This document shows, piece after piece, positions 2,003 to 22,243 of a DNA stretch of 32,000 nucleotides. Numbering within the stretch: the first letter of the stretch is position 1; each line of letters starts with the position of its first letter. A program made the position numbers and the translations under genes. A model generated the notes under the pieces. That model made no database searches and had not been told where the DNA came from. It saw only the letters and a list, made by a program, of their open reading frames with translations. This DNA is from Desulfotalea psychrophila LSv54 (GTDB taxonomy: Bacteria > Desulfobacterota > Desulfobulbia > Desulfobulbales > Desulfocapsaceae). The stretch lies in assembly GCF_000025945.1 (NCBI RefSeq), contig NC_006138.1:1290001-1322000 (forward strand), written 5' to 3'.

Positions 2003-2794
2003 ATGGATAGAGTGGTTCCGGGCTTACTTCTGGCGGGGTTTTGGCTCTTGTTGCTTTTTAAGGGGTCTGCTCTGCTGTTCTCTGTTGTTATCCTGGCTGT
2101 TATTTTCATGGCGGCAAATGAGTATCTGCGCATGGCAGCTGCGGGCTTAATTGGGAAAAAGGAGAGGTATTTTCTTAATCTGGTGCTGATGTTTCCAGCT
2201 CTTGCTGTTACCATCAATTCAACTCAGCAATATCTTGCTCCCGCTCTTCTGGCCTCTTTTTTCGTCCTGACAGGTTATTTTCTCTATCGCTACGCCAAGT
2301 TTGAACAGCCCTACGCCTTCTTTGCCCGTCTTCTCTTTGGGGTCTTCTATATAGGCTTTCTCAGTTCATACCTCCTGCTGGTCCGGGCCCTGCCCGATGG
2401 AAATTACTGGCTGATCGTTGCCTCGGCTATTACGGCAGGTGCTGATTCAGGGGGATATTTTGTCGGCTGTTCCATTGGTAAGCATAAGCTCTGCCCTAAT
2501 GTCAGTCCCAAGAAGACCATTGAGGGCGCTCTGGGCGGCCTTGTCTTTGCCCTCATTGCCGCCTTTGTCGGCGCTCACTTTCTTCTCCCCGAGGTTAGCC
2601 CCTGGTTTTTGGCTCTTGGCACCGTGGTTCTCACCGCAGCTGGAGTGGCCGGTGACCTGACAGAATCTATTATAAAGCGAGGCACGGGCACCAAGGATTC
2701 CGGCACCTGTCTTGGCGGGCATGGTGGTATTCTGGATCGAATTGACTCTCTGCTCTTTGCCCTTCCGGTGCTCTATACGGTGCTTACCTTCTAA
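2003..2794 (+). CDS. cdsA: phosphatidate cytidylyltransferase (CDP-diglyceride synthase)
   Basis: Polytopic membrane protein with the C-terminal CDS signature SIIKRGTGTKDSGTCLGGHGGILDRIDS. Conserved position after uppS. Confidence 0.85.
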   Translation: MDRVVPGLLLAGFWLLLLFKGSALLFSVVILAVIFMAANEYLRMAAAGLIGKKERYFLNLVLMFPALAVTINSTQQYLAPALLASFFVLTGYFLYRYAKFEQPYAFFARLLFGVFYIGFLSSYLLLVRALPDGNYWLIVASAITAGADSGGYFVGCSIGKHKLCPNVSPKKTIEGALGGLVFALIAAFVGAHFLLPEVSPWFLALGTVVLTAAGVAGDLTESIIKRGTGTKDSGTCLGGHGGILDRIDSLLFALPVLYTVLTF

Positions 2795-2853
2795 TTTTTT
2801 TTGGTTACCCGTTGTTCTGTTAAGGGCGTATCCATACTAGTTTATCATTTAAT

Positions 2854-4011
2854 ATGAAAAAAATATCTCTTCTTGGGGCGACGGGTTCCATTGGCACAAG
2901 TGTGCTTGAAGTTGTTCGGAAATTTTCCGATCAATACAGGATTGTCGCTATGGCTGCTGGTCGCAATATTGATCTCTTTGCCAGACAGATTGAGGAGTTT
3001 TCTCCAGATCTTGTTTCAGTGCTTGATGAGGAATATGCCCATTGCCTGCAGGAGAGGCTGGGAGGATTCAGGGGTAAGATCCTCTGGGGAAACGCGGGCA
3101 ATGAAGAGGTTGCCGCCTATCCCTCTGCCTCAATTACCATCTCAGCAATTGTTGGTGCGGCTGGTCTACTTCCTACCCTGGCGGCAATTGAGGCGGGAAA
3201 GGATATTGGCCTTGCCAATAAAGAGACCCTGGTCATGGCAGGAAAAATTGTCATGGAGAGAGCACGGCGTAAGGGGGTGGCACTGCTTCCCGTTGATTCC
3301 GAACACTCTGCCATCTTTCAGGCCCTGCATGCAGGTAAGAGGGCAGATCTGGCTAAAATTATTCTCACCGCCTCCGGTGGACCATTTCATGGCAGGACAG
3401 CTGCTGAACTTGCGCAGGTCACCCCTGCTCAAGCTCTGGCTCATCCAAACTGGAGTATGGGTAGAAAGGTCTCCATTGATTCAGCTACCCTGATGAACAA
3501 GGGGCTGGAGGTGATTGAGGCGAAATGGCTCTTTGATGTAGAGCCGGAGAACATAGAGGTGGTGGTGCATCCCCAGTCTATTGTTCACTCTCTGGTTGAG
3601 TACCATGACGGTTCGTTGATTGCCCAACTTGGGGTGGCTGATATGTGTATTCCCATTGCCTATGCCCTCTCCTATCCAAACCGTTTACCCCTCGGTCATA
3701 AGCGCCTCTCCTTAACCGACTGTGCCTGTTTGGACTTCATTCGGCCCGATACGGAAAACTTTCCAGCCCTGCCCCTGGCCTTTGAGGCCCTACGGCGGGG
3801 AGGGGTTGCGCCAGCAGCACTTAATGCGGCAAATGAGATAGCGGTTGCCGCATTTTTAGATGGCAAAATACGCTTTCTTGACATAGCAAGGCTTGTAACA
3901 GATACTGTAGACGTTGTTTCCCCGGGGGATGAAAATAAATTAGATGATATCTTAGCAGCAGACAGGGAGTCCAGGGAAATAACCCGGCAAAAAATAACGG
4001 AACTCTTCTGA
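2854..4011 (+). CDS. dxr: 1-deoxy-D-xylulose 5-phosphate reductoisomerase
   Basis: [15 protein letters not shown]-binding N-terminus plus DSEHSAIFQ and HPNWSMGRK motifs. 385 aa. Confidence 0.95.
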
Positions 4012-15272: not shown

Positions 15273-15349
15273 GGTCCCGTAGCTCAGCTGGATAGAGCAT
15301 CTGCCTCCTAAGCAGAGGGTCAGGCGTTCGAATCGCCTCGGGATCACCA
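15273..15349 (+). tRNA. tRNA-Arg (anticodon CCU), 77 nt with encoded CCA
   Basis: Folded by hand. Acceptor GGUCCCG/CGGGAUC (one G-U pair), D stem GCUC/GAGC, anticodon stem UCUGC/GCAGA with loop CUCCUAA, 5-nt variable loop, T arm AGGCG-UUCGAAU-CGCCU, discriminator A, then CCA. Confidence 0.92.
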
Positions 15350-15397
15350 GTTATATAAGGCACTTACGGTTTACGCTGTAAGTGCCTTTTTCGTTTT
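15318..15397 (+). repeat. proximal copy of the island-bounding direct repeat (tRNA 3' 32 nt plus terminator hairpin), attL-like
   Basis: Aligns with 22286-22365. A 23-nt identical core ttcgaatcgcctcgggatcacca lies at 15327-15349. Confidence 0.85.
15357..15397 (+). terminator. intrinsic terminator after the tRNA
   Basis: 11-bp stem aaggcacttac/gtaagtgcctt (15357-15367 and 15378-15388) followed by tttttcgtttt. Confidence 0.7.
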
Positions 15398-15559
15398 AAG
15401 TGCATAATAAGTGCAGAAAGTGCTGGGGCTAGTTACAGCGCTGAACCTCTTTCCTCATCCGTATTATCGTTGTACTATCTCGAATTAATTATAAATTATA
15501 TCAAGAAAGCTCTCTCCTCTTGCCCCGCTCGCTGTTATACCGGAAAATAGTATGATTTT

Positions 15560-16010
15560 AACATCATCTGCCGGGACTTGCATTGAGGCTATTTGCATAT
15601 CGCACGCATCTCCATTAATCCACCAACATTTTTTTCAGCACTAAGTAAACAAAATGAGAAACAGCAGTATAAATATTTTCATCTTTAGTGGCACTCCGAC
15701 CTGCAACAGCCAACACGTTCGGCGGAACGTTCATATTTGAAGCCAGCAGGCACCCACAGCTTCTTAGAGTAACCGATGACCGCCATCTCTCATGTTTCGT
15801 AATACCCGCTGAGAGGCCCTGTGAGGGGCCTACGTCTCCTGCAAGTTTCAGGCGCTATCTATGCTCTATACCGGTAATATCGGCCCCTGCTACACCCTGA
15901 TACTCTTTTCTTTACCACGTAGACCTTCTGTCACAACCTGCCCTATTCCTACCGTGCAAGGCAACCTGCACCGTCTTCCTTTACTAGAGTAGAGGTGTGC
16001 TTCTGAGTAT
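15560..16010 (-). pseudogene. possible decayed tyrosine-integrase remnant next to the tRNA
   Basis: There is no long ORF on either strand. Minus-strand reading gives short integrase-like strings in different frames: GLRGKEKSIRV (~15893-15930), TFRRTCWLLQVGVPLK (15683-15730, preceded by a stop where the HxxR histidine would be) and ENIYTAVSH. This is weak evidence by eye. Confidence 0.25.
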
Positions 16011-16218
16011 TCCCTGTGATAGGATAAGATGCTGGTCGGCAATCTCTGGCGAACAAAGGTTTTTGGCTATCTGTGGGTGGTCAAGTGCTTGCTTGAGCTA
16101 AAACGCATTGATTTGATGGTTCTTTTTTGGTATCACCCGTAATGGATGCTGATCTTTATTTGTCGGCGGTTGAGTCAGGCAAGGTTGAAAAGATCTGGAT
16201 CGTACGGGAGATATCAGC

Positions 16219-16267
16219 TTATCACTCGTTATTAATGATATCCAGTTTCTGGATAATAATTTGTTAT
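16219..16267 (+). repeat. island intergenic repeat, copy A (upstream of the 470-aa gene)
   Basis: ttatcactcgttattaatgatatccagtttctggataataatttgttat is about 80 percent identical to copy B. Contains the hairpin tatccag-ttt-ctggata (16239-16255). Weaker similarity extends upstream (tgtcgg, tacggg). Confidence 0.7.
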
Positions 16268-16301
16268 TCTTTGGATTACGAACAGCAAATATGGATGAAA
16301 A

Positions 16302-17714
16302 ATGTCATTTAATTTAGAAGCATTAGAATTAGCAGAGACCTACGACTTTGGGGTCGTTGTAAATGATGGTGCAAATAATTTTGCCGCGAAATTAAACCTT
16401 TCTCCAGAAAAAATCACCATCACTATAATGGGGGAAGGAGGTGACGAAAGAAACTGTTCATTAGGTTATTGTGACGTAGATAGTTTGATTTGTAGAGATT
16501 TGAATAACACTTTCTTTTTACATGAGCTTACCTTTGTTAAAGGTAGTAGTAGACTGATATCACATCATCCCAAACATATAGGGTTTTTCGAAAGCACTTT
16601 TGAAGTCGGTTATGTGATTTTTTCACCGTCCCATCTAGATGAAAATAACTTGGTTGAATCGATAAGTATTCATTCAAACAAGATAAGTGAATGGGTAGGA
16701 ACTACGAATACACAAGAAGAAATAATTAGGGCTTATAATGACAAAGAGCCAATTTTGGAATGTCCAGAAAAACTAAATGAGTTTTTAACCCCACTCGACG
16801 GCGTAGGAATATTGGGTGTTGGTTATAACTTGTCAATGCACAGCTCCTCGCCAAGATTCAGTGCAGGAATTAGTTTTCCACCTTCATTAACCATAGTATT
16901 TCTAAATGGTCAAATTTCGAAAATAGTGATGGATAGCTTCCGTAAGTTATATGCTTTGCTGGCATTTTTTATGGGAGATGACTTTTTGGTCGAACAGGTA
17001 GATATTAGCTTCGGTTCAAGTTTCCGTAGCCGCAAGGGAACACTTTATTATCCTTCAAAAGGCCTGTGTCCTAGATACGAACAAGGCTACTCTTTGTTTC
17101 CGTTAGGGTTAAATGTTCGTTTTGATTCTTTAGGACTTCCTGCGCTTCCAGTGACCTCATTTAATAACTATTATTCTTTGCCAGAAGTTTATTCAGGCTA
17201 TTTTTCAAAGTATTTAAAGTATAAAAGAATGGAAAATCCAGAGGAAAGATTTTTAGGTTTCTTTCGGATTTTAGAGTCACTATGTTTCAACAAGAAGAGC
17301 TATTTAGACGAAGAATTACTGGGTCAAATGTGTGATAGAGTGAAGCCGTATTTAATAAAAAAATTCGGTGATAAAGAAAATGCAACCAGCTTTCTAAGAG
17401 GCATTCCTCGCTACAATAATTCTAAATACAACACAGAAAAATGTATCCAAGATTTTTATTCAAGAATACCAAAATTAGTTTCTGGTAAATGGAAAGTAGA
17501 AAAACGTGATATTGGCAGTATATGTAAACTCAGAAACGATATAACTCATGCAAATGACTATTATATCAACAATAACGAAATAGAAGAGAAAGTAAAATTT
17601 ATGGAGGTTTTATTGGTATATTCATTGTTCGAAAAGTTAGGAGTTGAGCTAACGACAACTGCAGAAATTGCCTATAGAATGCAAGGTTACCATTTGGTCA
17701 CTAAAAAACCATAA
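16302..17714 (+). CDS. HEPN-motif protein with an ApeA-like architecture (putative abortive-infection RNase)
   Basis: 470 aa and A+T-rich. C-terminal helical region with ERFLGFFRILESLC and the RNxxxH motif LRNDITH (17532-17549; R411, H416). The N-terminal beta-rich region (FAAKLNLSPEKITITIMGEGG) recalls the ApeA N-terminal domain. Not HMM-verified. Confidence 0.55.
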   Translation: MSFNLEALELAETYDFGVVVNDGANNFAAKLNLSPEKITITIMGEGGDERNCSLGYCDVDSLICRDLNNTFFLHELTFVKGSSRLISHHPKHIGFFESTFEVGYVIFSPSHLDENNLVESISIHSNKISEWVGTTNTQEEIIRAYNDKEPILECPEKLNEFLTPLDGVGILGVGYNLSMHSSSPRFSAGISFPPSLTIVFLNGQISKIVMDSFRKLYALLAFFMGDDFLVEQVDISFGSSFRSRKGTLYYPSKGLCPRYEQGYSLFPLGLNVRFDSLGLPALPVTSFNNYYSLPEVYSGYFSKYLKYKRMENPEERFLGFFRILESLCFNKKSYLDEELLGQMCDRVKPYLIKKFGDKENATSFLRGIPRYNNSKYNTEKCIQDFYSRIPKLVSGKWKVEKRDIGSICKLRNDITHANDYYINNNEIEEKVKFMEVLLVYSLFEKLGVELTTTAEIAYRMQGYHLVTKKP

Positions 17715-17798
17715 ATAACAACTTGTTAAGGCGCGCACAAAACAGCTGGTTCGCGCTCGTTCCTCGCTCAAATGTCGGGCAAAACTACGGGGCATAGG

Positions 17799-17849
17799 TT
17801 ATCACTCGTTGTTGAATGATATCAGGAAACCGGATAATAACTTGTTAGA
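17799..17849 (+). repeat. island intergenic repeat, copy B (upstream of the 201-aa gene)
   Basis: ttatcactcgttgttgaatgatatcaggaaaccggataataacttgttag. The hairpin at 17820-17836 occupies the same position as in copy A, with one compensatory pair change (A-T to G-C) and the loop changed from ttt to aaa. Confidence 0.7.
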
Positions 17850-17858
17850 TGTAAAGTA

Positions 17859-18464
17859 ATGAATGATATCTACCCAGATTTAGAATGGTATACATCGCTA
17901 AGCGCTAGCAAAAACGCAGCGCCTAGATGTCCATATGCAAATGTGCATCGGTGTAACCGCTATTACTCCAGTCTATATTTGTTAGGGGAGCGTAATATCG
18001 CAAGCAAAATGAATGAAAAAAAAATAATTGAACTAGATAACTATTGGCAAGAAACTGATTTAATACCTGTTGTCCAAGAGCATGATCCGGCTATCAGTTC
18101 TAGTAATGGTAAGATCTTTAGTGTTAGCAATTTCTGCCCTGAAGTTAGTTTTAATTTTTTTAGTTTATTTACTGAATATATGTCGAAGTATGTAGATGAA
18201 ATTGATAGAGACTATGTTCATCAACGATTGAGTTCTGAAGCAAGGAGTAAAGATTGGCGATGGGAATGGATGTCCATAAAAGAAATGCATTATCTAGATT
18301 GCCCAGCCTACTCTCAATTAATGGGTTCCGCATATAGCGCAAATAAAAAAGAAAACGAAACGCAAAAAGACGAAATACTAGAAATAAAGCCAAGTTTTAT
18401 GGGTGTTAGCATTAACCTAAAATCCTTGTATAAATGGGTTGTTAAAAAAGCGCATAATAAATAG
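17859..18464 (+). CDS. hypothetical protein, 201 aa, no recognisable domain
   Basis: Uninterrupted ORF with the same A+T-rich composition and strand as the upstream HEPN gene. Scattered Cys/His (CPYANVHRC, FCPEV, LDCPAY). Basic C-terminus. Confidence 0.6.
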   Translation: MNDIYPDLEWYTSLSASKNAAPRCPYANVHRCNRYYSSLYLLGERNIASKMNEKKIIELDNYWQETDLIPVVQEHDPAISSSNGKIFSVSNFCPEVSFNFFSLFTEYMSKYVDEIDRDYVHQRLSSEARSKDWRWEWMSIKEMHYLDCPAYSQLMGSAYSANKKENETQKDEILEIKPSFMGVSINLKSLYKWVVKKAHNK

Positions 18465-18720
18465 ATTCAGCGTATGGCCATCGCGCGCCGGGACTGTTAA
18501 ACAATTTTTGATCAATAATTTTGTCCACCCCAACCCCCTGCTTCCGTTGCCAATCCTCAACAAGCAGATACTGCTCCCACTTTCCCGCATCTTCAGAGAG
18601 GGCTTGCCGGACGGTCTCGGTATTTCTACCAGCGTGGACGGTAATCTCATCCATGCCACCACCTGCACCTCTCTTTTTCACTTCTATCCCAATATATGCT
18701 ACATAACCTTCACCAACCAA
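18442..18720 (-). CDS. doubtful ORF or gene fragment in a short higher-GC patch
   Basis: 92 codons starting at a TTG directly after an in-frame TGA. Contains IGIEVKK (an ExK-like string). Overlaps the 3' end of the 201-aa gene by 23 nt. Confidence 0.2.
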   Translation of the reverse strand: MVGEGYVAYIGIEVKKRGAGGGMDEITVHAGRNTETVRQALSEDAGKWEQYLLVEDWQRKQGVGVDKIIDQKLFNSPGARWPYAESIYYALF

Positions 18721-19015
18721 TCATAGGACCCCAACACGTACACCTAATGGTTCTTAATTATTGTCTATAAAAAAGAAATAGTGTAAGGACAGGGGCGGAG
18801 GACATCAATGCACCCTTTTGTAAGGTAGGTAGCCGTGGGTGTTTAGGTTGGAGCGCTGTAAGTTGATCGGTAAGGCTAGAAGGATCATGTGTATGGTTGC
18901 AACAATCTTTCACTACGGATCTCTAGGAAATCATCAGGGACACAATAGTTAGTTTTGCCAAATAGTATGCTTGCCCCCTAGAGTTCAGAAGCATGTGCAG
19001 CGTAAATTTTAATTT

Positions 19016-19597
19016 TTATGCATCTGAACCGGATTTATCTGAGATACTATTGGGTTTAATCGAAGAGGGAAACCAATCAAATAAATTTGAAAAAAGACTC
19101 TGATACCAGTTTATCTTGTAAGAATATTTTTCATCATACCCTAGTGCTTTTGCTAATTCATTGTGGCACATTAAGTTTAACACTTGGAGCACAGGTGGCT
19201 CTTCTGCCTCTATTTCAAGACGTTCACGCATCACGCCCAACAACTGATCAGAATGTAATTTTGGATCTATCAATTTTTTTTCTAACGATATAAAATCCCT
19301 TGCGAAATCATGATGACTCCTTGCTTTCCCCTTAGTCTCAAAAACAAGATCTAGAACAGAAAAAATAGCTGTAAGGCTAGCTAATATCAATGGAATCCAC
19401 GCAGTATTCTCTGAGGAAATAAGGGCTATAATCGTACTAGATCCAAATATAGCAGTAAAGGCATCTGACAATTTACTGACTCGATCGAAAAAACCTCGCC
19501 GTCTATTGTGATACCTCACTGATCGTCGGACACTGAAAAGTAGATTGTGTTGCTCCTCTGCAATCGTATCGTTTTCTCCCGTTACATCTTCTTGCAT
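19016..19597 (-). CDS. SLATT-like two-transmembrane protein (putative membrane-disrupting effector)
   Basis: 193 aa. Basic N-terminal helix (SVRRSVRYHNRRRGFFDRVSKL), then two adjacent TM helices (AFTAIFGSSTIIALI and AWIPLILASLTAIFSVLDLVF) and a helical C-terminus. This layout and the RYHxRRRxFF string match my memory of SLATT-family proteins. Not HMM-verified. Confidence 0.5.
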   Translation of the reverse strand: MQEDVTGENDTIAEEQHNLLFSVRRSVRYHNRRRGFFDRVSKLSDAFTAIFGSSTIIALISSENTAWIPLILASLTAIFSVLDLVFETKGKARSHHDFARDFISLEKKLIDPKLHSDQLLGVMRERLEIEAEEPPVLQVLNLMCHNELAKALGYDEKYSYKINWYQSLFSNLFDWFPSSIKPNSISDKSGSDA

Positions 19598-19602
19598 TTT
19601 AA

Positions 19603-19773
19603 TTACTTCTTTCCAGGAGGTTTTCTCGGTGGTGGTGGAGCTGTATCAACAATTCTGTCTTTTCTGCTATAGTCAATTGACTGTGGGGTGCTGTGATCAG
19701 TAAACGGCATACTTTTACCACTTCCAGCTCCACCCTTATCTTGCTTTTTACCTGTTTTCCCTTGTTCTGCCAT
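19603..19773 (-). CDS. 56-aa Lys/Gly/Pro-rich micro-protein, not in the supplied ORF track
   Basis: Hand translation: MAEQGKTGKKQDKGGAGSGKSMPFTDHSTPQSIDYSRKDRIVDTAPPPPRKPPGKK. GAGGTG (19780-19785 on the - strand) lies 6 nt upstream of the ATG. Its stop is 5 nt before the SLATT-like ATG, and the purine-rich end of the ORF could serve as that gene's RBS. Confidence 0.5.
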   Translation of the reverse strand: MAEQGKTGKKQDKGGAGSGKSMPFTDHSTPQSIDYSRKDRIVDTAPPPPRKPPGKK

Positions 19774-19878
19774 TAAAGTCACCTCACGCTTAATTTCTTT
19801 TCATTTTTTTATGATATTTCTAAAAGCTGCTGATTTCACCTAACAGCATAATAACTTACCACAAAGCTGGATTAGTAC

Positions 19879-19903
19879 AATAAGTGCAACAGACTAAAAT
19901 TTG
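19879..19903. repeat. 25-bp exact repeat, copy 1 (aataagtgcaacagactaaaatttg)
   Basis: Identical to 30534-30558 in the same orientation. Its first 10 nt, aataagtgca, also occur at 15406-15415 at the island's left junction. Confidence 0.9.
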
Positions 19904-19977
19904 AAAAGTGAGTGAGTTGGAGGTATGGTTTGCCCTCTCCCTCCGTGTCCAGTCCGTACTATCGTGTGAGGAGAGCA

Positions 19978-20380
19978 GATTAAATCCTGCCCACTTTCGC
20001 CTATGCTGGGTTTGATTCTCGACTCTTTACAGTCACTTATTGACGAAATTCCCCCAAGTCACCCCCCCAGGAGGGAAAACTTTTAATGGTGATCAGCGGT
20101 GAAAGATTAGGAAGGGAACTGCTCTCTCTACCTGCTTAAACTATATGCACAGTCAAAGCCTACTTTTTGTGCACGTTTTCCCCATATGCACTGTATCGAC
20201 CTTTCTTTGGGCAATCCCCATTGTCACGGAGCTGAGCAGTGGAGAGGTTGGGGAAAGCAGAGTTTGAGTTGTTTAAGCTAGCCTTCTTAAACTCTCGCTA
20301 AGCTTTGAGAAGCACAGGCTAGGCGCCCGTAGTGACGGGGCTCCTTTCCTTCGTTTTCTTTTGAGTAAAAGAGATGAATA
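19978..20380 (+). pseudogene. decayed second copy of the Fic gene (internal deletion, 3' part plus downstream tail)
   Basis: 19978-19990 matches Fic nt ~21715-21727. 20002-20137 matches ~21938-22090 at roughly 80-85 percent identity by eye. 20337-20380 matches the Fic stop region and the 40 nt after it (22236-22283). No open frame. Confidence 0.7.
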
Positions 20381-20411
20381 TGTGCCCTTTATTTGCATCA
20401 GCCTGTTTGGC

Positions 20412-20816
20412 CTACTCTTTATAACCAAAGACAGTGATGAAAGAGGTGGTCTCTGGTGGTCTTGCCAAATACTCATCAACGAGAATGTGGCTCACATCGG
20501 GGGATGTCATTTTTGCTAACTTCTCCATAAGAATATCGTCAAAACGCTCCTTAGCAATATAGTTGTTTTCTTTGAGGTAGGACTCAAATTCAGTTGCAAT
20601 ATCGAGCATATTTTTAATAACAGGACTTTCCTTATACTCTTCTCGAATATATGAGAAATCAAAGCCGAAATAGGTGCAGGCCGCAAAGATCAGGTGTGGA
20701 CAGTGCCAGTACTCTCCTCTGGCAAACCACTCTTTATTGCATATAGGGCAGCGTATTTCCTCCCATCCTTCATCCCTGTTAACTCTCTTGTGCGCGTCAG
20801 ATTGTACTATTTTCAT
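20412..20816 (-). CDS. hypothetical Cys/His-containing protein, 134 aa
   Basis: ORF with a CPICNKEW...HCPH pattern (possible zinc-binding knuckle). Divergent from the Fic gene across a 395-bp spacer. Confidence 0.5.
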   Translation of the reverse strand: MKIVQSDAHKRVNRDEGWEEIRCPICNKEWFARGEYWHCPHLIFAACTYFGFDFSYIREEYKESPVIKNMLDIATEFESYLKENNYIAKERFDDILMEKLAKMTSPDVSHILVDEYLARPPETTSFITVFGYKE

Positions 20817-21211
20817 GGACTATCCTTATAAATGATCTTAGGTTTTCTGGTTATGCATAAACAATCTTATTCCATGCTACTAAACATTCTATTTTCAATT
20901 TGTCATGGTTCTATTGAGGATGAAATAAAAAAAGCTCTTGCCGGGTCATATTGTGTAGAAAGAATATTTTTCGTAGTTTTTCATTGATCCTGAAGCATCG
21001 GTTTCAGGGGGCACGTTTGGGGCACGAGGGTGCAGAGGGTGTGGCGAGTGATACAAGGTACAGGAGAGTTTATATGCTTATGCAAAGGTATAGGGCAGAT
21101 GAGTGGCTGCTGTAAGCGGAGCCATCTGCTACTGTTTTACCAGTAAATAGAGTATGCTTAGGCTCAAAGATAAAAACTTGGCATCTAACAGCTCATACAA
21201 ATAAAATAGCA

Positions 21212-22243
21212 ATGAATCCTCCCTTTACCATCACCAGCCAGATACTCTCTCTCGTGGCAGAGATCAGTGAGAAAGTTGGCAATATCAAGGCCTTTCAGCA
21301 ATCTGGAGGAACGGACCATAAGCGGGATGATCTCCGTCTGCGCAGGATTAATCAAATCCGTACCATCCAAGGCTCTCTTGCCATTGAGGGTAATACCCTC
21401 AGTGAAGAGCAGATCACCGCCATCTTAGGGGGAAAGACCGTTATCGCGCCCCTAAAGGAGGTGCAGGAGGCTCGCAACGCCTTAAAGGTCTATGGTCAGA
21501 TGGAGAGATGGCGTTTCGCGGCAAGAGACGACCTCCTCCGGGCCCATAAAGAGCTGATGCTCGGTCTTCTTGACAGTGCCGGACAGTACCGTAGCTCTGG
21601 GGTTGGCATAATGAAGAACGAAGAGGTTATCCACCTGACACCACCTGCGGATATGGTGCCAACTCTGATGGCCAATCTCTTCTCATGGCTTAGAGACAGC
21701 GAGGCGCATCCCCTGATTAAATCCTGCGTCTTTCACTATGAATTTGAGTTCATCCACCCCTTTGCCGATGGTAATGGCCGAATGGGTCGCCTCTGGCAAA
21801 GCCTCATTCTCTCTGATTGGCATGAGATCTTTGCCTATCTGCCCGTAGAGAGTCTCGTCTATCAATATCAGAGTGAATATTATCGGGCCTTGAATGAAAG
21901 TACGAACCAGGCTGATTCTGCTCCCTTTATCTCATTGATGCTGGGTTTGGTTCTCAACTCTTTACAGGCATTTATTGATGATACCCCCCAAGTCACCCCC
22001 CAAGTCACCCCCCAAGTCGGAAAACTTTTAATGGTAATCAGGGGCGAAATGTTGGGAAAGGAACTGCTCGCTCTGCTTGGTCTAAGGGATAGGAGATCGT
22101 TTGTCAGGCTTTATCAGGAGCCGGCCCTTGCTACCGGTCTTGTTGAGATGACTCTGCCGGAAAAACCCACCAGCCGTCTGCAGCGATATCGACTGACTCT
22201 CCTGGGGCATGAAGTGCTAAGAACAATTTCCTGTCAGGGCTAG
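21212..22243 (+). CDS. Fic-family protein (AMPylase-type), with an N-terminal inhibitory motif and a C-terminal winged-helix-like tail
   Basis: Canonical Fic motif HPFADGNGRMGR (21755-21790). (S/T)xxxE(G/N) inhibitory motif SLAIEG (21374-21391). C-terminal LPEKPTSRLQRYRLT string typical of Fic proteins with a wHTH tail. Confidence 0.9.
   Translation: MNPPFTITSQILSLVAEISEKVGNIKAFQQSGGTDHKRDDLRLRRINQIRTIQGSLAIEGNTLSEEQITAILGGKTVIAPLKEVQEARNALKVYGQMERWRFAARDDLLRAHKELMLGLLDSAGQYRSSGVGIMKNEEVIHLTPPADMVPTLMANLFSWLRDSEAHPLIKSCVFHYEFEFIHPFADGNGRMGRLWQSLILSDWHEIFAYLPVESLVYQYQSEYYRALNESTNQADSAPFISLMLGLVLNSLQAFIDDTPQVTPQVTPQVGKLLMVIRGEMLGKELLALLGLRDRRSFVRLYQEPALATGLVEMTLPEKPTSRLQRYRLTLLGHEVLRTISCQG
21983..22018 (+). 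repeat. three tandem copies of a 12-nt unit (accccccaagtc) inside the Fic gene, encoding TPQV x3
   Basis: Read directly from the sequence. The decayed copy at ~20050-20068 has only about one unit. Confidence 0.9.

Follow-up and report, generated by a model that had tools for sequence, protein, structure and literature searches.

A small DT-x-x-PP protein encoded beside a SLATT-like two-helix membrane protein: a candidate two-protein module of genomic islands, prophages and plasmids

We describe a pair of adjacent genes on the minus strand of a 32,000-nucleotide (nt) stretch of the Desulfotalea psychrophila LSv54 genome (contig NC_006138.1, positions 1,290,001 to 1,322,000; this whole stretch is referred to as the window, and coordinates follow its numbering unless another sequence is named). 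The upstream member is a micro-ORF (open reading frame, ORF) of 56 amino acids (aa), and the downstream member encodes a 193-aa protein with two transmembrane (TM) helices, referred to as the 2TM protein, that resembles the SLATT membrane effectors. Both genes are under selection, their pairing and geometry are conserved across loci, natural fusions join the two proteins, the modeled fold of the 2TM protein is SLATT-like, and the pair has no enzymatic partner. We read the pair as a horizontally mobile two-protein module composed of a SLATT-like membrane effector and a small regulator protein, and we give this reading a probability of about one half.

The micro-ORF is a conserved gene

An earlier note on this DNA had placed a 56-aa ORF 5 nt upstream of the 193-aa gene on the same strand, with GAGGTG ahead of its start, and these coordinates are borne out (Table 1). 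An alternative start, the GTG at 19782, would yield a protein of 59 aa; the ATG is favored by the N-terminus of the family, which reads M-[AS]-[DE]-K in 38 of 39 peptides. The window peptide begins MAEQGK and ends ...DRIVDTAPPPPRKPPGKK. As the note had described, it is highly basic and rich in Lys, Gly and Pro (isoelectric point 10.0; nine Lys, eight Pro and seven Gly); its grand average of hydropathy is -1.46, it contains no hydrophobic segment, and the protein is probably soluble and disordered. Searches against Pfam, NCBIfam, PADLOC and PHROG found no domain in it. The note had also called the ORF unannotated, which is not the case, as NCBI holds it as a nameless hypothetical protein of D. 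psychrophila (P0069).

The micro-ORF has counterparts throughout the family of the 2TM protein. We collected 80 loci encoding 2TM relatives from one-genome-per-species collections; they span Desulfobacterota, Alpha-, Beta- and Gammaproteobacteria, Acidobacteriota, Verrucomicrobiota, Nitrospirota, Binatia and other lineages, and most contain a same-strand ORF of ~47-67 aa that ends a few nt before the 2TM start or overlaps it. In 39 aligned peptides the conserved element is a C-terminal motif of the form [VI]-x-[DN]-T-[LHVF]-x-P-P(-P) (for example, VVNTAPPPPPRKP, IVDTHPPPPPPGQ, VFDTLKPPPRPG and VRDTLAPPDPER), referred to below as the DT-x-x-PP motif. Specifically, residues T44, P47 and P48 are each at least 90% conserved, three consecutive prolines occur in 28 of the 39 peptides, and [VI]x[DN]T occurs in 32. 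The polar middle of the peptide varies between homologues apart from a semi-conserved (D/E)(Y/F)(S/G)E element, and the N-terminal two-thirds as a whole is poorly conserved. A strict version of the motif ([DN]T.{1,2}PP, plus-strand frame, no more than 180 nt upstream of the 2TM gene) is present at 58 of 80 loci, a 122-fold enrichment of this zone as compared to all other six-frame positions of the same loci. A relaxed version precedes the 2TM gene at no fewer than 66 of 81 loci, and several other loci carry variants.

Selection acts on the amino-acid sequence of the peptide, as indicated by synonymous variation at the proline codons and by ratios of nonsynonymous to synonymous substitution rates (dN/dS) that are mostly below 1. 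All four proline codons are used within the motif (CCG 0.33, CCA 0.32, CCT 0.23 and CCC 0.13), much as in the neighboring gene. Sixteen close pairs were tested for dN/dS, two of which were saturated at synonymous sites; the remaining 14 gave values of 0.08-0.70 in 13 cases and 1.18 in one. The conservation of the pair and the balance of synonymous and nonsynonymous changes, by which the earlier note had proposed to judge the micro-ORF, thus both speak for it. The idea that the proline codons form an anti-Shine-Dalgarno RNA element, which would base-pair with the ribosome-binding site further downstream, was rejected, as all four codons occur and there is no CCU/CCC bias. A likeness to proline-rich antimicrobial peptides was also dropped, since 8 of the 39 tails are acidic and the motif differs.

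Searches in the reverse direction lead back to the same loci. A profile built from the peptide alignment returned only 10 matches, all of them unnamed hypothetical proteins from such loci, and each of the three unnamed database proteins that were looked up from the profile is directly followed by a gene of the 2TM family. The small protein of Burkholderia phage phiE255 (gp48) matches phrog_27674, a PHROG of unknown function whose model misses the window peptide. We conclude that the micro-ORF is a gene and the constant partner of the SLATT-like family. In a Methylococcaceae metagenome-assembled genome (MAG), the VMDTIKPPPRPQ motif lies inside a 132-aa ORF (locus L014, 813-1211) that has a signal-peptide-like start and a glycine-rich hydrophobic continuation, and this ORF may represent a different architecture or an assembly artefact.

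The two genes are coupled and in places fused

Measured from the small gene's stop codon, the nearest in-frame start of the 2TM gene follows at a median of +5 nt; at 52 of 65 loci the value is between -30 and +15 nt, and the two genes commonly overlap by 4, 8, 11, 14 or 20 nt. Such a geometry is typical of genes that are translated together from a single mRNA. The tail that follows the prolines is variable (4-27 residues) and often encodes the Shine-Dalgarno sequence of the 2TM gene (e.g. AAG GAG), which explains part of its K/G/R/E-rich composition; the median separation between the first proline codon and the 2TM start is 40 nt, and the prolines lie 17-102 nt from the start codon. At most loci the 2TM gene is preceded by a good Shine-Dalgarno sequence. 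In the window, no canonical GGAGG was found before the 2TM start, and just GGAAAG/AAGAAG is present within the last codons of the micro-ORF; because the ATG of the 193-aa protein is without a good Shine-Dalgarno sequence, coupling may count for more here than at most loci.

In four independent cases the peptide, including its motif, is fused in frame to the N-terminus of the 2TM protein (L025, P0080, P0128 and P0174). The L025 fusion (3222-3896 of its locus) reads ...AIDTHPPPHDKPKDD...KLLFGIRRSVRYH, the motif takes the form VIDTIPPP in P0080 and VSDTLRPPSKPPP in P0128, and in P0174 a zinc-ribbon-like N-terminal segment (CxxC...CxxC) is followed by VSNTVEPPPPPKPP. These fusions speak for a peptide that functions as a polypeptide, beside the cytoplasmic N-terminal helix of the effector. 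The earlier note had proposed that the micro-ORF is a translationally coupled partner of the membrane protein, and the recurrence of the motif at 66 or more of 81 loci, the short median spacing, the selection on the amino-acid sequence and the fusions all support this proposal.

The 2TM protein is related to SLATT effectors

The SLATT domain was reportedly defined by Burroughs et al. in 2015. As the earlier note had read from the sequence, the 193-aa protein has the SLATT-type layout, in which an N-terminal helix with a basic stretch (eight Lys or Arg within residues 20-44) is followed by two adjacent TM helices that are separated by a loop of only 4-5 residues; both Kyte-Doolittle hydropathy and a structural model agree with this description. 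The AlphaFold2 model, which was computed with 30 homologues as input, is all-helical and confident (predicted local distance difference test score, pLDDT, 91.3; predicted template modeling score 0.84). It contains a long helix that runs from residue 6 into TM1 (residues 6-61), TM2 (67-86), three further helices (88-110, 116-132 and 138-152) and a short one (164-168). A Foldseek search of BFVD, a collection of predicted viral structures, with this model returned giant-virus proteins named SLATT or SMODS-and-SLOG-associating 2TM effector as its top five matches, with a probability of 1.0, a best TM-score of 0.68 at a root-mean-square deviation of 3.2 angstrom and marginal E-values of 1.9e-3 to 8e-3. 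The same search of the PDB gave nothing at E <=0.001, the best match having an E-value of 1.1.

Family profiles give a graded result. The window protein matches the NCBIfam model SLATT_4 (NF033632) with an E-value of 5e-6, its score of 26.4 bits falling below the curated cutoff of 55, and matches SLATT_1 with an E-value of 0.019; Pfam, including PF18186, returned no match at E-values up to 10. Among 30 diverse homologues, 26 match the NCBIfam SLATT_4 model at E <=0.01 (best E-value 1.2e-7), below its cutoff, and eight match SLATT_1, and the corresponding Pfam models match weakly in two (SLATT_4) and three (SLATT_1). The search with SLATT hidden Markov models that the earlier note had suggested thus gives consistent matches to SLATT_4 across the family, with the window protein and its relatives under the cutoff and Pfam silent on the window protein. 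In a PADLOC scan of both window proteins the sole match was a weak '2TM effector' (E-value 0.024). Weak Pfam and NCBIfam matches to Rv2743c/PspM (6/30 and 2/30 members) were treated as similarity of TM segments alone. From the model and these profile matches we conclude that the 193-aa protein and its relatives form a distant branch of the SLATT fold, beyond what the curated family models cover.

The family has conserved motifs of its own. The first, RRSVRYH..RR, lies on the cytoplasmic helix that enters TM1, where S26, R28, Y29, H30 and R33 are invariant in the 30 homologues. The second, RLEIEAEEPPVL.VLD.ICHNE, forms the core of the C-terminal domain, where R126, L127, I129, E130, C144 and H145 are invariant and E133, P134, N146 and E147 are at least 90% conserved. 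The protein thereby has its own conserved EEPP element and an invariant Cys-His followed by a highly conserved Asn-Glu (C144-E147), in addition to H30 and H95. The conservation of these polar residues in the alignment hints at a cytoplasmic site for a ligand, a metal or a partner. The family is large, with 2789 clusters at 50% identity matching at E <=1e-3 and 629 at E <=1e-30, and the window protein belongs with phrog_11791 (E-value 2e-49), a PHROG of unknown function.

Genomic context of the pair

All-against-all clustering of the ORFs in 81 loci identified only one recurrent neighbor besides lineage-specific synteny, an XRE/cI-type repressor located 1-2 kb upstream on the same strand at 20 of the 81 loci, in some cases with an S24 peptidase domain. 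A census with Pfam and PADLOC of the 141 immediate neighbors of 80 loci gave a heterogeneous set of helix-turn-helix proteins, holins, Dam methylases, integrases, a transposase, one protein each of the cpYpsA-SLOG, SoFic and PtuA types, and housekeeping enzymes. No CD-NTase/SMODS, TIR or reverse transcriptase family is listed among these 141 neighbors or recurs in the 81-locus clustering, the closest entry being the one cpYpsA-SLOG protein; profile scans likewise found no nucleotide-signal generator or reverse transcriptase in the island that holds the window pair. A CD-NTase gene adjacent to the effector, as in type I CBASS, was found neither in the window nor in the neighbor censuses. The earlier note had remarked that no such partner is present in the island, and its observation extends to the neighbors of the family.

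Several phages and plasmids carry the pair. The 2TM protein corresponds to gp19 of Burkholderia phage BcepMu and gp49 of phiE255 (43-44% identity), and gp48 of phiE255 is an annotated small gene that overlaps gp49 by 20 nt. In both phages the genes for a cI/Cro-type regulator and then a membrane protein precede the small gene and the 2TM gene, after which come another small gene, holin, endolysin and Rz/Rz1. In Pseudomonas phage TC7 the gene annotated as "repressor protein C" is immediately followed by the pair; the small ORF is unannotated, and the annotated 2TM gene is extended at its N-terminus so that it overlaps the small ORF. The small ORF is also unannotated on Klebsiella plasmids that carry the pair. 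The repressor lies upstream of the pair and on its strand in all three phages (gp17 to gp19 in BcepMu, gp46 to gp49 in phiE255, and repressor C to TC7_041 in TC7). No repressor gene is found near the pair in the window itself. These contexts give the picture of a self-contained mobile two-gene cassette that favors prophage immunity regions and genomic islands, both of which are typical homes of exclusion, abortive-infection and addiction modules.

Two variations on this arrangement were observed. In BcepMu-like prophages (L006, L012, L015, L026, L029 and L034, and as gp18 in BcepMu) a poorly conserved gene of 140-260 aa is located between the repressor and the micro-ORF; its products fall into several unrelated clusters, the BcepMu and phiE255 annotations call it a membrane protein, and it may be a third, variable cargo of the operon that contains the pair. 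Some Acidobacteriota/Bryobacterales carry tandem 2TM copies on the same strand, which lie 10 nt apart in L047 (4460-4978 and 4989-5507) and 1.2 kb apart in L054 (4986-5525 and 6723-7250); no micro-ORF with the DT-x-x-PP motif precedes the upstream L047 copy or either L054 copy.

The island in the D. psychrophila window

In the window the pair is part of a region (15273-22243) in which a tRNA gene is followed by a low-GC stretch (36-42% GC as compared to 45-52% in the flanks). The interval from the tRNA gene to the first island gene contains no ORF of 90 aa or more and hence no visible candidate for an integrase. The other genes of the stretch are listed in Table 1, and with them this tRNA-flanked stretch looks like a small defence or toxin island. 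The 134-aa ORF, which is located ~630 nt 5' of the micro-ORF and on its strand, contains a CPIC...HCPH Cys/His pattern. A Fic-family gene lies ~1-2 kb from the pair both in the window and in the Desulfuromonadales MAG L018 (6008-7309, minus strand). The latter gene is taken to be the neighbor that PADLOC names SoFic, one of the 141, and the proximity of Fic genes, two cases in 81 loci, may be a coincidence. The sigma-70-like sequence just upstream of the micro-ORF is weak evidence for a promoter, as promoter-like matches occur in the region at the frequency expected from shuffled sequence.

Table 1. Features of the gene pair and its surroundings in the window, and small partner genes that lack annotation in other sequences
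Feature	Position	Strand	Basis or remark
2TM gene, 193 aa, ATG start	19016..19597	minus	ORF reading; presumed membrane effector
R126...E147 codons (RLEIEAEEPPVLQVLNLMCHNE), conserved core of the C-terminal cytoplasmic helical domain	19157..19222	minus	alignment
TM2, residues 67-86	19340..19399	minus	Kyte-Doolittle >1.6, family mean 1.90; helix in model
TM1, residues 45-61	19415..19465	minus	Kyte-Doolittle family mean 1.46; helix in model
R24-R-S-V-R-Y-H30 codons, cytoplasmic motif on the helix entering TM1	19508..19528	minus	alignment
Spacer of 5 nt, micro-ORF stop TAA to 2TM ATG	19598..19602	minus	translational-coupling geometry
Micro-ORF, 56 aa, ATG start at 19773	19603..19773, stop codon included	minus	ORF reading
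V42-D-T-A-P-P-P-P49 codons, conserved [VI]x[DN]T-x-x-PP(P) motif	19627..19650	minus	GTT GAT ACA GCT CCA CCA CCA CCG
GAGGTG, Shine-Dalgarno-like, 6 nt 5' of the micro-ORF ATG	19780..19785	minus	read from sequence
Sigma-70-like match GTGAAA-17-TATCAT, weak candidate promoter	19811..19839	minus	just upstream of the micro-ORF
tRNA-Arg(CCT) gene	15273-15349		low-GC stretch begins after the tRNA gene
ApeA_NTD1 + HEPN_Apea protein gene (ApeA-type HEPN)	16302-17714	plus	low-GC island
201-aa island ORF	17859-18464	plus	no match in Pfam, NCBIfam or PHROGs
134-aa island ORF	20412-20816	minus	no match in Pfam, NCBIfam or PHROGs
Fic/DOC protein gene, Fic-like C-terminal domain	21212-22243	plus	low-GC island
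Small partner gene, BcepMu NC_005882 (L081)	3802-3990		unannotated
Small partner gene, Klebsiella plasmid OW969859 (L083)	2808-3008		unannotated
Small partner gene, TC7 (L084)	2314-2472		unannotated

Alternative explanations

The prolines of the small gene might matter to the ribosome more than to the effector protein. In such a translational throttle, slow passage through the PP or PPP codons, dependent on elongation factor P (EF-P), would precede re-initiation on the effector gene (or run-on into it) and would set the amount of effector or make it dependent on conditions, and the peptide itself would have little function. This explanation accounts for the fact that consecutive prolines are the most conserved feature of the peptide (P47 and P48 in at least 90%, PPP in 28/39), for the tight coupling, for a window effector without a good Shine-Dalgarno sequence of its own and for a variable post-motif tail that often does no more than encode the effector's ribosome-binding site (e.g. 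AAGGAG), and it is compatible with the fusions, in which the prolines still precede the effector and could limit how many ribosomes reach its coding sequence. A plain polyproline pause, however, needs neither [VI]x[DN]T nor the upstream (D/E)(Y/F)(S/G)E element, and the whole-peptide dN/dS is below 1 in most close pairs. Only two consecutive prolines are present at 23 of 65 loci and a single proline at 7 of 65, and because most loci have a good effector Shine-Dalgarno sequence, initiation need not depend on the leader. We regard the throttle as rather unlikely. An arrest-peptide switch of the SecM, MifM or ApdA type, in which a stall at the prolines would melt a hairpin that hides the effector's ribosome-binding site and effector synthesis would require a prolonged stall, is very improbable. 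The micro-ORF does share with such peptides (SecM and the RAPP peptides ApdA and ApdP), and with EF-P-dependent polyproline proteins, a short ORF with a conserved C-terminal proline motif that is positioned immediately 5' of a membrane-protein gene, and its first proline codon lies at a median of 40 nt from the effector start. However, partition-function computations with and without a ribosome-sized mask at the prolines revealed no stall-sensitive mRNA structure: the mean probability that the ribosome-binding site is unpaired at 50 loci was 0.48 in the free mRNA, 0.51 when the stall footprint was masked and 0.50 under a control mask, and in the window the site is already 0.84 unpaired without a stall. 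As the masks had no effect, stall-dependent unmasking of this site was rejected. Moreover, the proline-to-start distance varies over 17-102 nt, a stalled ribosome would itself cover the site at 15 of 65 loci, the in-frame fusions to the downstream protein abolish any intergenic switch, and the peptides have no signal or TM segment through which force could be sensed. The R-[AGSP]-P-[PG] core (R-x-P-P) occurs in none of the 39 peptides, and the arginine of this core has been reported to be irreplaceable in RAPP-type arrest peptides (PMC12992588).

We consider a function in phage lysis improbable; under this explanation Mu-like phages would use the pair as a holin/antiholin-like or lysis-timing device, and the window copy would be a stray remnant. 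The pair does lie just 5' of genes for a holin, a transglycosylase endolysin and Rz/Rz1 in BcepMu, phiE255, the Klebsiella plasmid and several Pseudomonas, Burkholderia and enterobacterial prophages, and its predicted topology resembles that of class II holins, which have two TM helices and both termini in the cytoplasm. Against this, lysis genes are found at only ~6-8 of 81 loci, all of them BcepMu-like, so that outside this subset the pair is not in a lysis cassette with an endolysin; Holin_2-3 accounts for 3 of 141 immediate neighbors. BcepMu and phiE255 already have a separate annotated holin, the TC7 pair follows the repressor with no lysis genes nearby, and the window island contains no endolysin. 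The predicted cytoplasmic domains of the 2TM protein, ~44 and ~105 residues with invariant polar motifs, are also atypical for holins. The simplest alternative, a chance ORF in the 5' leader of a 193-aa gene that alone is real, is rejected by the comparative data and retains almost no probability. Its appeal is that the ORF is short, of low complexity and poorly conserved over its N-terminal two-thirds, and that one pair has a dN/dS of 1.18; against it stand the conservation of frame, position and motif across phyla, the synonymous variation of the proline codons, the conserved M-[AS]-[DE]-K N-terminus, the natural fusions, and the independent annotation of such ORFs as phiE255 gp48 and as NCBI hypothetical proteins.

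A possible mechanism for the two-protein module

For the preferred reading, a mobile module of membrane effector and small regulator, we infer that the two proteins touch, that one regulates the other in one direction or the other, that the effector damages the membrane and that the pair serves in defence or addiction. The effector would be an inner-membrane protein with both ends predicted to be cytoplasmic, in which the long basic helix bearing RRSVRYH leads into TM1 and is followed by a tight hairpin, TM2 and a four-helix cytoplasmic domain (RLEIEAEEPP...CHNE). The small protein would be made first and, as the effector start lies at or inside the end of its gene, the two would be produced jointly from one mRNA. 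Acting as a polypeptide on the cytoplasmic face, the small protein may regulate the effector either as an inhibitor (antitoxin) or as a trigger-sensing tail. Its DT-x-x-PP(P) motif could engage the RRSVRYH helix and the face of the CHNE domain, or else a third factor through which infection is signaled. If the motif were lost, displaced or occupied, either during phage infection or when the element is lost, the effector would be free to disturb the inner membrane, which would stop growth or exclude the incoming phage.

Several observations weigh against the module as we read it. Some 10-15% of the loci have no peptide (L005, L054, L061, L068, L077 and the upstream tandem paralogue in L047), so that the effector can exist without the small protein. 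No DNA-binding domain is recognizable in the small protein, whereas most type II antitoxins have one. An AlphaFold2 model of the P0128 fusion has a confident body, and its residues 1-50 have pLDDT values of just 53-64 with no docking predicted, the alignment being shallow in this region. PADLOC offers no model for the pair beyond the weak effector match described above, known defence genes are scattered among the neighbors, and the toxicity, membrane action and defence role of the pair are predicted properties.

A broader proposal, which we advance only tentatively, is that the pair is a widespread minimal phage-defence or exclusion system, in which a SLATT-like effector would be controlled by a disordered protein of ~57 residues in place of a nucleotide messenger, with the DT-x-x-PP(P) motif serving as a trigger-sensing or inhibitory element. 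The motif could be bound by a phage protein or, as a polyproline stretch, could report on host translation (EF-P-dependent elongation) during infection, and Mu-like prophages would express the pair from their immunity region.

Comparison with known systems

The 2TM protein is most readily compared with the SLATT two-TM effectors (SLATT_4/PF18186 and SLATT_1) of type I CBASS, retron, DRT/UG-Abi and RADAR systems. It shares with them a length of ~180-190 aa, an N-terminal helix, two adjacent TM helices and a helical C-terminal part, in addition to similarity to SLATT_4, its top structural neighbors and mobile or defence-type contexts. In a lactococcal type I CBASS, SLATT_4 is the annotated effector beside a CD-NTase (PMC11381338), and SLATT proteins have been described as mobile effector or accessory modules. 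They do the killing or serve as accessories in CBASS, DRT/UG-Abi reverse-transcriptase and RADAR systems, and their formation of pores is only predicted (PMC9226505). The window protein differs from these effectors in scoring below the curated cutoff and in having its own motifs (RRSVRYH and RLEIEAEEPP...CHNE), and its family differs in that the neighbor censuses revealed no adjoining CD-NTase, SMODS, TIR or reverse transcriptase gene, its constant partner being instead the small DT-x-x-PP protein.

Two further classes of gene pairs share the layout of the module. In phage lambda the rex genes are co-located with cI, and RexB has a role at the membrane. As in cI-rexA-rexB, the pair forms a two-gene module downstream of a repressor on the same strand (BcepMu, phiE255, TC7 and ~20 prophage-like loci), with one inner-membrane and one soluble partner. 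However, the window proteins match no RexA or RexB model in PADLOC, the soluble partner is a probably disordered protein of ~57 aa, and the pair also occurs outside prophages, as in the window. Type II toxin-antitoxin systems likewise have a small upstream gene that is coupled to, or overlaps, a larger one, an adjacent co-directional geometry that the pair has, as well as a mobile and patchy distribution on plasmids, prophages and islands. In contrast to these systems, the small protein has no recognizable DNA-binding domain or fold, and the putative toxin is a SLATT-type membrane protein and not a cytosolic enzyme.

Significance

No description of the pair was found in the literature, where a passing mention is possible and the SLATT-defining paper lay outside the search, and PADLOC v2 has no model for it. 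This is consistent with the earlier note, which did not recognize the pair from described systems; its members have no family in PADLOC or Pfam and match only PHROGs of unknown function. We rate the effector as one of a known kind, a SLATT-like 2TM protein catalogued just as a PHROG of unknown function, and what is new as its micro-protein partner, which takes the place of a nucleotide-signaling or reverse-transcriptase partner. Because the small gene is present in the DNA of BcepMu, the Klebsiella plasmid and TC7 but was left unannotated there, searches that ignore ORFs shorter than 60-70 aa see only an "orphan" effector.

If the proposed reading is true, the pair would represent a SLATT effector with a signal-free, peptide-based activation logic. 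How SLATT proteins are switched on is poorly understood, and the PDB holds no solved structure that resembles the 193-aa model. With a constant partner of ~57 residues and one short motif, the pair is perhaps the smallest system in which SLATT-like regulation could be dissected. Its position behind the repressor of Mu-like Burkholderia and Pseudomonas phages and its presence on Klebsiella plasmids make it a candidate prophage-encoded exclusion function in clinically relevant hosts.

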